Shown here piece after piece: positions 52,672-53,980 of a DNA stretch of 64,000 nucleotides. Source of the stretch: Octopus vulgaris (lineage: Eukaryota); assembly GCA_951406725.2 (NCBI GenBank), contig OX597834.1, positions 3,348,001-3,412,000 of the forward strand. The letters are read 5' to 3'. The translations under genes were made by a program, and so were the position numbers. The notes beneath the pieces were generated by a model that saw only the letters and a program-made list of their open reading frames with translations, ran no database searches and was not told the origin of the DNA. Numbering within the stretch: position 1 is the first letter of the stretch; each line of letters starts with the position of its first letter.

Positions 52672-53980
52672 TTTAACGGAATTTTCAACAAAACTCGCTT
52701 AGATGTTGTAGATTCAGAGTATTAAGGGATTTGTTTCAAAGAAGATTTTGTTAGGAGTTTCGGAAAATTCACACAATCCAACATTTTCCCCATCATAACT
52801 TTTAGGAAAACAGGAATCGTTTACTCAAAGATCTTTCAAAAGGCACAGATTATGATTATAAACAAATTTGTGGAGAAAATTTTTATCGAGAGGTTGGGGA
52901 GAGAAGTTTCGAAAAAACATTGCTTTGGATCTGGAAGACCACATATCTTGGAATTTATTCGTTTTAATGAGGATTTTCCCGGTTATTTCTATCAGCACAG
53001 CCATCAAAATGATAGGGTGGAGTGGAAAGTATCTTCTTTTCTCTTACACAAACGGCCTCGTTTGATTGAGGTGGGCATAATTTAAATATCCATTTTTATT
53101 TCTATTGTTGCGTATATGGTCAAACTAAAGTGTTTGACCCGGTCATAAAAAACAAAAAACAAATAGTGTGATAGGTGTAAAACAACTTGCTCTAAACGAA
53201 TATGACAAACAGAAATGTGTGCTCGCTAAAGAGGGGTGGGGGAGAGGACTCGGAAAATTCACATCTTCAGTCCATGGCCTTTAAACTATAGTGTTTGACT
53301 CGGGACAGAAAAAAATTTTTTAAATAGTGTTTTGAGCAAAGACTTTTCCACAGACATCACAGCGATGTGGTTTATCCCCAGTATGAATACGTTTGTGAGT
53401 AGTCAAGTGTAGCTTCAAAGAAAACGATTTACCACACACATCGCACTCGAATGTTTTCGCCAGCGCGAAATTTTTGGCATATTCGTTTAGAGAAAGTTGT
53501 TTTACACCTATTACACTATTTTTTTTATGACCGAGTCAAACCATTTAGTTTGACCGCGTATATAGCACCAATGAACCACACGTGTGTTACTTCGACATCA
53601 TCATTCCATAAAATGAGTTTAATGGGAGAAAAATACTGAATCAATATCAAAGCGTGTGAGAGTGAAGACGGAGAAATTACAATTGATGTTGTCTTCCTTA
53701 TCAGAAACACCGGTTTTTCCAAATTCCTCTCCTCACCCCTTCGGAAATCATTTTCCCCACAAATTTCTTTATAATCATAATCTATGCCGTTTGATAGCTA
53801 TTTCTATGAACATTCAGTAAAAGACACCCATTTGCCTGAAAGCGATTTAGAGGGAAAAAGTCGGGTCGCGTGAATTTTCCCAAACTCCCTTCCCTTCTCT
53901 CTTGGAAAATTCTTTGCAACAAATCCTTATATATTCTGAAGTAACAGCATCTAAGCGGGATTTGTTGAAAGTTTCGTGAA
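52672..53980. mobile_element. Old foldback element in the intron of gene 5 (homolog in gene 6 at 60415-62160)
   Basis: 52672-52920 aligns imperfectly to the reverse complement of 53710-53980. Confidence 0.65.
53118..53555. mobile_element. Merlin-like non-autonomous element containing a zinc-finger coding fragment (53328-53457)
   Basis: TIRs GGTCAAACTAAA.../...TTTAGTTTGACC (~100 bp), 8-bp TSD GCGTATAT (53110-53117 and 53556-53563), and an empty site at 61735-61742. Confidence 0.85.

Follow-up and report, generated by a model that had tools for sequence, protein, structure and literature searches.

The window analysed here is a stretch of 64,000 nucleotides of Octopus vulgaris contig OX597834.1 (GCA_951406725.2, forward-strand positions 3,348,001 to 3,412,000) that holds a cluster of genes coding C2H2 zinc-finger (ZNF) proteins. 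The predicted 5'-UTR intron of one of them, gene 5, hosts a transposable element of 438 bp (53118-53555) that starts with GG, ends with CC and is flanked on both sides by the octamer GCGTATAT (Table 1). The sequence GGTCAAAC is present at both ends of the element and the same termini are found in the family copies, giving the 5'-GG ends typical of Merlin transposons. The outer terminal inverted repeats (TIRs) pair over ~92 bp with 84% identity and one 9-bp gap. An earlier note on this DNA, made from the sequence alone, gave the TIRs as ~100 bp long, which is right for the outer pairing and has to be completed by a longer, modular left arm that extends to 53330. The stretch 53210-53330 forms the remainder of this arm and is not host DNA or unique interior; it is assigned to the transposon because other copies align to element positions 1-213. 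In a genome search where the best 40 of 2123 candidates were scored, family copies align to positions 1-213 (83-90% identity) and to positions 338-438, and this locus gives the only full-length match. The sole segment foreign to the family is 53331-53453. Host sequence of non-transposon nature is enclosed between the two arms of one TIR element with a target-site duplication (TSD), as in single-copy Pack-TIRs. The last 3 nt of the left arm (TGT) and the TTTC at 53455-53458 of the right arm are common to the arms and the donor of this filler.

Table 1. Coordinates of the element, its host intron, candidate donors and empty site in the window
Feature	Position	Strand	Remarks
Predicted 5'-UTR intron of gene 5, hosting the element	52591..54045	-	consensus splice sites only
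Left target-site duplication GCGTATAT	53110..53117	.	
Left arm, non-autonomous Merlin	53118..53330	+	one full ~160-bp TIR module and the first ~50 bp of the next
Filler from a C2H2 zinc-finger gene	53331..53453	-	53328-53458 when both microhomologies are counted; sense as in gene 5
Right arm, truncated	53454..53555	-	~100 bp of the outer TIR module
Right target-site duplication GCGTATAT	53556..53563	.	bridged by contigs of runs X1 and X4
Best donor match, tail fingers of ZNF gene 5	50669..50799	-	96%; 2.5 kb from the element
Second-best donor match, ZNF gene 6	59576..59706	-	6 kb away
Empty paralogous site, upstream of gene 6	61735..61742	.	one copy of the 8-mer

The 8-bp TSD is confirmed by empty paralogous sites, the one upstream of gene 6 and a second one at the next paralog, just beyond the window (C21:3416413). 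The element, its GG and CC ends, its perfect TSD and the first of these empty sites had been proposed in the earlier note and all coordinates hold; the second site is new. Three paralogs share 98% identity in the 450 bp that adjoin the insertion site on its right (53564-54013 compared to 61743-62192 and L067), and to its left the same three are only ~74-85% identical. These identities suggest a recent gene conversion among the paralogs, with a tract end near the insertion site.

Read on the minus strand, 53329-53457 codes for a full C2H2 finger and half of another, with a TGDKP linker, and the filler scores with the Pfam zf-C2H2 profile at E 1.1e-9. It differs at 5 of 131 positions from the tail fingers of gene 5 and at 7 of 131 from gene 6. 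The near-identity of this fragment to both genes, pointed out earlier, is thus borne out, as is its capture from a neighbour, the best genomic match being gene 5. Of the best 40 candidates scored, the 12 that resemble the filler most, self-match aside, all map to contig C21, nine of them to this cluster, and the top five lie at most 29 kb from the element. A donor in cis is usually found less than 15 kb from a single-copy Pack-TIR; the two leading candidates here are 2.5 kb and 6 kb away. The Leu-encoding base of the motif SLKLH in the filler is common to gene 5 alone among nine paralogs. At two sites the filler agrees with gene 6 and not with gene 5, one change is private and one junction base fits the TIR. 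The filler is identical to no assembled gene, gene 5 being the nearest, and from the sequence comparison it is likely that the template was an allele of gene 5. A contig of run X3 (one of the public runs discussed below, which appears to be without the insertion) matches the filler over 53402-53447 with zero differences, which would be compatible with such an allele. In this assembly, two in-frame TAG codons precede the donor fingers of gene 5. These codons are three codons apart (51114-51125) and follow ~12 fingers, so that the tail fingers of gene 5, donor included, would go untranslated in this haplotype.

Both junctions of the filler feature microhomology between arm and donor. The TGT (3 nt) at the left junction had been noticed before, and a TTTC (4 nt) beside one mismatch is now added at the right junction. 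Among 200,000 random joins of these sequences, microhomology of at least 3 nt occurred in 6.2%, of at least 4 nt in 2.3% and both together in 0.13% (joint chance 0.0013), with thresholds that were set post hoc, after the data had been seen.

The element is a member of the Merlin superfamily, because its ~150-bp TIR modules also occur elsewhere in the genome, where they enclose a DDE transposase of the IS1595 type and are accompanied by an 8-bp TSD. What was at first a guess from the fit to Merlin is in this way placed on the transposase itself. A profile search of the genome with DDE_Tnp_IS1595 (PF12762) gives many Merlins, two matches of which abut the arm of this element family. The genome search made with that transposase region gave 64 candidates. 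Arm matches, weak in one case, are likewise present at 23 of the 25 loci fetched. Target-site duplications of 8 bp are also made by hAT and P elements, and an assignment to either was rejected on the identity of the linked transposase, PF12762. In 11 two-ended copies not selected for their TSD, a perfect 8-bp duplication is present in six and a 7/8 match in one, with none of 9 bp. The autonomous Merlin with the same TIR that the earlier note proposed to look for is found in parts. L075, 2702 bp long, has both element ends, a perfect 8-bp TSD, arms 76-87% like those of the element studied here and an interrupted transposase; L077 has an uninterrupted ORF of 315 amino acids (PF12762, E 1.6e-16) and the element ends lie beyond the fetched locus. 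None of the transposase-bearing loci fetched shows both ends plus an intact ORF in a single copy.

Merlin elements, which are related to IS1595/IS1016, are described in the available part of a study of the superfamily (PMC8101967) by GG ends, 8-9-bp TSDs and a DDE_Tnp_IS1595 domain, with TIRs of 24-462 bp and internal tandem repeats that in one family have a 163-bp unit. The 5'-GG termini, the 8-bp TSD and the DDE_Tnp_IS1595 transposase of the cognate elements agree with that description (PMC8101967). Unlike the Merlins described there, the copy in gene 5 is non-autonomous and carries host coding DNA, and the arms of its family are built of two to four tandem ~150-bp modules whose number varies between copies (PMC8101967). 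The interiors also differ greatly in length from one family copy to another.

The genome hosts several Merlin families. The PF12762 cut-off was passed by all 150 candidates scored (the best 150 of 476), many of them in open frames of more than 300 amino acids. When 20 Merlin loci are ranked by Pfam score, the top 19 belong mostly to other families with different TIRs; among them L064 alone has the arm of the family studied here and L054 has an isolated 75-bp piece. Another family features GGCAC termini and 8-bp TSDs (L059, L060, L062 and L063). In a transposase-bearing copy at L066:7224-8420 (C19), the 3' arm is duplicated in inverted orientation, yielding a 1.2-kb foldback.

The presence of the insertion was examined in seven distinct public runs (X1-X7) through their contigs, which show presence and not absence. 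Run X1 has one 734-nt contig over the filler, the right TIR, the TSD and the flank, with four differences from the assembly. Contigs of X4 cover the right junction (53387-53484 and 53429-53484, with 26 letters on the short side) and also the element end, in both cases differing from the assembly. Misassembly is unlikely because the join of filler, right TIR and flank recurs in two public runs that differ in letters from the assembly. An artefactual joining of a Merlin arm to a collapsed ZNF repeat is extremely unlikely: the region is repetitive, and the left ZNF junction (53328) is not bridged by any listed contig with 31 letters on each side, which is no evidence of absence, but such a joining is contradicted by the X1 and X4 junction contigs with their own letters and by a filler that matches no gene exactly. 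In X2, X3, X6 and X7 the empty site is spanned by uninterrupted contigs, and in X2 the left flank specific to gene 5 leads into the empty-site contig; X5 could not be called. From the contigs, the insertion appears to be polymorphic, present in X1 and X4 and empty in X2, X3, X6 and X7. No run recorded as RNA is among the listed runs that hold element sequence, which has no bearing on expression.

The structure at this locus is quite probably that of a non-autonomous Merlin whose interior was replaced by ~125 bp of ZNF DNA, copied in place from gene 5 or an allele of it in a single gap-repair event. The predicted 5'-UTR intron of gene 5 would first have received a Merlin derivative, and a double-strand break or an aborted excision would then have opened a gap within the repeat-rich arms of this insertion. 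The broken end, primed by TGT, would have switched to the nearby ZNF exon and copied ~125 nt; the copied strand would have rejoined the right arm via TTTC, with loss of the original interior. The product would not have transposed since and would make no protein. The nearby donor, the microhomology at both joins and the lack of a sister copy in the searches run argue for such a repair, and the pattern fits single-copy Pack-TIRs as presented in the available part of their animal survey (PMC8277862). Less favourable to it are the mismatch that adjoins the right microhomology and the filler being identical to no assembled gene and like gene 6 at two sites. No insertion allele without filler was seen either, which leaves the order of insertion followed by capture a deduction: the runs display filler-bearing or empty sites only, and their short contigs are unable to resolve a filler-free allele.

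Gap repair in place finds a parallel within the family. Seven copies with one common insertion flank range from 376 to 645 bp and differ by gain or loss of modules and interior blocks, showing that these elements are remodelled without moving. L003, L117, L128, L134, L181, L183 and L184 (also L027) are on different contigs with the same flanks and TSD, so that the Merlin is part of a larger repeat, by which it was amplified; the empty-site motif of that carrier repeat was matched at two places only. The relative age of arms and filler gives a borderline indication in the same direction. Near-private changes number 15 in 314 columns of the arms compared to one private change in 126 bases of the filler (Fisher p 0.048), an excess as expected if the filler were younger than the arms, which may also stem from an unsampled sublineage of arms. 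The difference is lost, at p 0.61, once the four departures from gene 5 outside the junction are all scored as changes in the filler, and this weighs against gap repair. The arms are ~7-8% away from the family majority, which is awkward for the same reading when the insertion appears to be polymorphic. Old arms in such an insertion could result from remobilisation of an older copy or from removal of the element by gene conversion from the empty paralogs.

The age of the arms gives some room to another order of events, in which a Merlin elsewhere, nearby or close in 3D, switched template to the ZNF gene, the resulting chimera later transposing into gene 5 (a FoSTeST-like capture or a local hop). 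A young, apparently polymorphic insertion with old arms is what a remobilised older copy would give, the filler is present in every insertion allele seen (assembly, X1 and X4) and an uninterrupted transposase ORF of 315 amino acids exists in the family. This order is nevertheless unlikely. Without a local source, a landing 2.5 kb from the best donor would be improbable, and the ~104 kb of ZNF cluster scanned contain no further family copy, so that a local hop would have no visible source. Multicopy Pack-TIRs, moreover, lie far from their donors in the available survey text (PMC8277862).

If the family had captured fingers repeatedly, other copies would be expected to carry them. The 144 loci collected yielded 22 two-ended copies with an 8-bp TSD, corresponding to 15 independent sites, and a real C2H2 motif or ZNF DNA is present in one of the 22, the element described here. 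No sister copy with the filler was found in genome searches with the element and with the filler (best 40 candidates scored in each). An exact pattern, with a sense ZNF linker at most 400 bp after the TIR motif, matched this element only in the whole genome. The same pattern in opposite orientation, which cannot match the linker of this element and is therefore without positive control, had no genome-wide match. Exact patterns miss diverged copies, and these single-copy searches are lower bounds. Within them the element is single-copy, like the Pack-TIRs that arise by repair, and the onward transposition or repeated coding captures that mark Pack-MULEs are not found. Non-family DNA is carried by other short copies among the 22, namely L009, L109 and L157. 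The L009 filler was rejected as a second host-gene capture since it is a high-copy repeat (1215 candidates). The L109 insert has inverted repeats of its own and is a nested element, L157 has two inserts and L012 has one. The genome-wide TIR check proposed in the earlier note, for other copies with host fragments, thus gave no coding capture beyond this element in the 22 two-ended copies, the outcome by which that note would recognise a single local repair. The second of its readings, a templated repair that happened once, is favoured; the first, a route for the movement of finger modules, is not supported. The capture seems to be an isolated event.

A Pack-type route, in which the family would repeatedly capture finger modules, spread them within and between ZNF clusters and so supply genes, is very unlikely indeed. 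Both termini are intact and the element could be mobilised in principle, and family ends are found within 3 kb of ZNF genes more often than random windows (p 0.028, see below), but ZNF DNA is confined to the one copy in 22 at 15 independent sites, the filler amounts to 1.5 fingers bounded by stops within a predicted intron, and the fingers of the ZNF-adjacent loci are outside the family-matching stretches.

The proximity to ZNF genes is itself the lead most worth following. Six ZNF-adjacent copies (L030, L065, L169, L170, L182 and the element described here) are all 5' of the ZNF frame, at ~0.7-2.5 kb. Two or more fingers occur within 3 kb of 3 of 79 non-redundant family end loci (11 redundant ones being dropped) compared to 0 of 180 random 3-kb windows (p 0.028), windows that were not matched for general gene proximity. 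A preference of this Merlin family for the 5' side of ZNF genes is possible. A bolder proposal, which is very unlikely, has the family inserting preferentially 5' of clustered ZNF genes, where its break-prone modular TIRs would pick up finger-coding DNA of the host gene; the elements so formed would move fingers onward or, as edited hairpin RNA with ZNF sequence, would regulate paralogs. If it were true, the element would be a young intermediate of transposon-driven evolution of ZNF clusters.

The capture was initially likened to plant Pack-MULEs. These and the Pack-TYPE elements likewise have a gene fragment between TIRs with a TSD; they are family-wide, with many captures and onward transposition. 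Neither many captures nor onward transposition was found for the family of this element, and the right comparison is with the single-copy Pack-TIRs of animals. A survey of 100 animal genomes (Tan et al. 2021, PMC8277862), cited here from its available parts, reports 370 Pack-TIRs, mostly single-copy, near their donors and with microhomology, which are attributed to gap filling. In single-copy cases the donor is at most 15 kb away in 56.9% and microhomology is present in 67.6%, the host fragment has a median of 224 bp and the gap replaced has a median of 4.6% of the interior (PMC8277862). The element in gene 5 is alike in its TIR and TSD, in the short host fragment inside, in the donor a few kb off, in the breakpoint microhomology and in its single copy (PMC8277862). 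Single-copy Pack-TIRs are also often in introns or UTRs and co-transcribed with the host gene, and the element here is in a predicted intron (PMC8277862). It differs from them in that most of the interior is replaced, compared to the median of 4.6%, and in that the filler is tandem-repeat coding DNA (PMC8277862). The Drosophila Ssk-FB4, a multicopy Pack-TIR explained by the FoSTeST model, likewise has host coding DNA within internally repetitive TIRs; it is multicopy, far from its donor and translated, whereas the element here is single, beside its donor and without an ORF (PMC8277862).

The 100 genomes of the survey include no cephalopod, and the sole mollusc, Aplysia, has 0 cases; "Merlin" is absent from the main text and, in 12 supplementary files, appears solely as the heading of a column (PMC8277862). 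No report of gene capture by Merlin was found in the literature covered, a scope outside which lie subscription journals and Repbase/Dfam. A term search of a paper on cephalopod C2H2 expansion (PMC12513265) gave no passage on shuffling or gene conversion in the text available. With this element, the formation of single-copy Pack-TIRs is extended to the Merlin superfamily and, probably, to a cephalopod; both are missing from the single survey of animals that was found. It is a clean teaching case because donor, empty paralogous sites and both junctions are all within 15 kb. Most likely it is a tidy example of a known process and not a working route for shuffling zinc fingers. How finger arrays diversify is not explained by it; its importance for the gain and swap of fingers in these arrays would rise if populations or sister species had this capture at further sites, or additional ZNF captures.

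The predicted intron has a donor-like GTAAGT at 54045 or GTAAGG at 54218 and an acceptor before 52590, with the ATG at 52232; both donor-like sites are conserved in gene 6. A protein-coding role of the filler was rejected since stops close the frame on both sides and no ATG is available: the finger frame has no upstream in-frame ATG and meets a TAA three codons past the junction. The minus strand of the element folds into a strong hairpin (-163.9 kcal/mol, z -11.5), and the sole likely effect of the element would be a long hairpin in the gene 5 pre-mRNA. The X1 differences from the assembly at 53500, 53509, 53511 and 53512 are all T>C, which is A>G on the gene 5 strand, and they cluster in the TIR helix. 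X1 is an RNA run by guess (42.8 Mb of contigs) with a depth of 4.8 at this place, and alleles or errors are possible sources of these changes. Compared to the neighbour preference of ADAR, a 5' G precedes none of them and one is in a UAG context, which resembles ADAR editing. They give a hint that the hairpin may be A-to-I edited.
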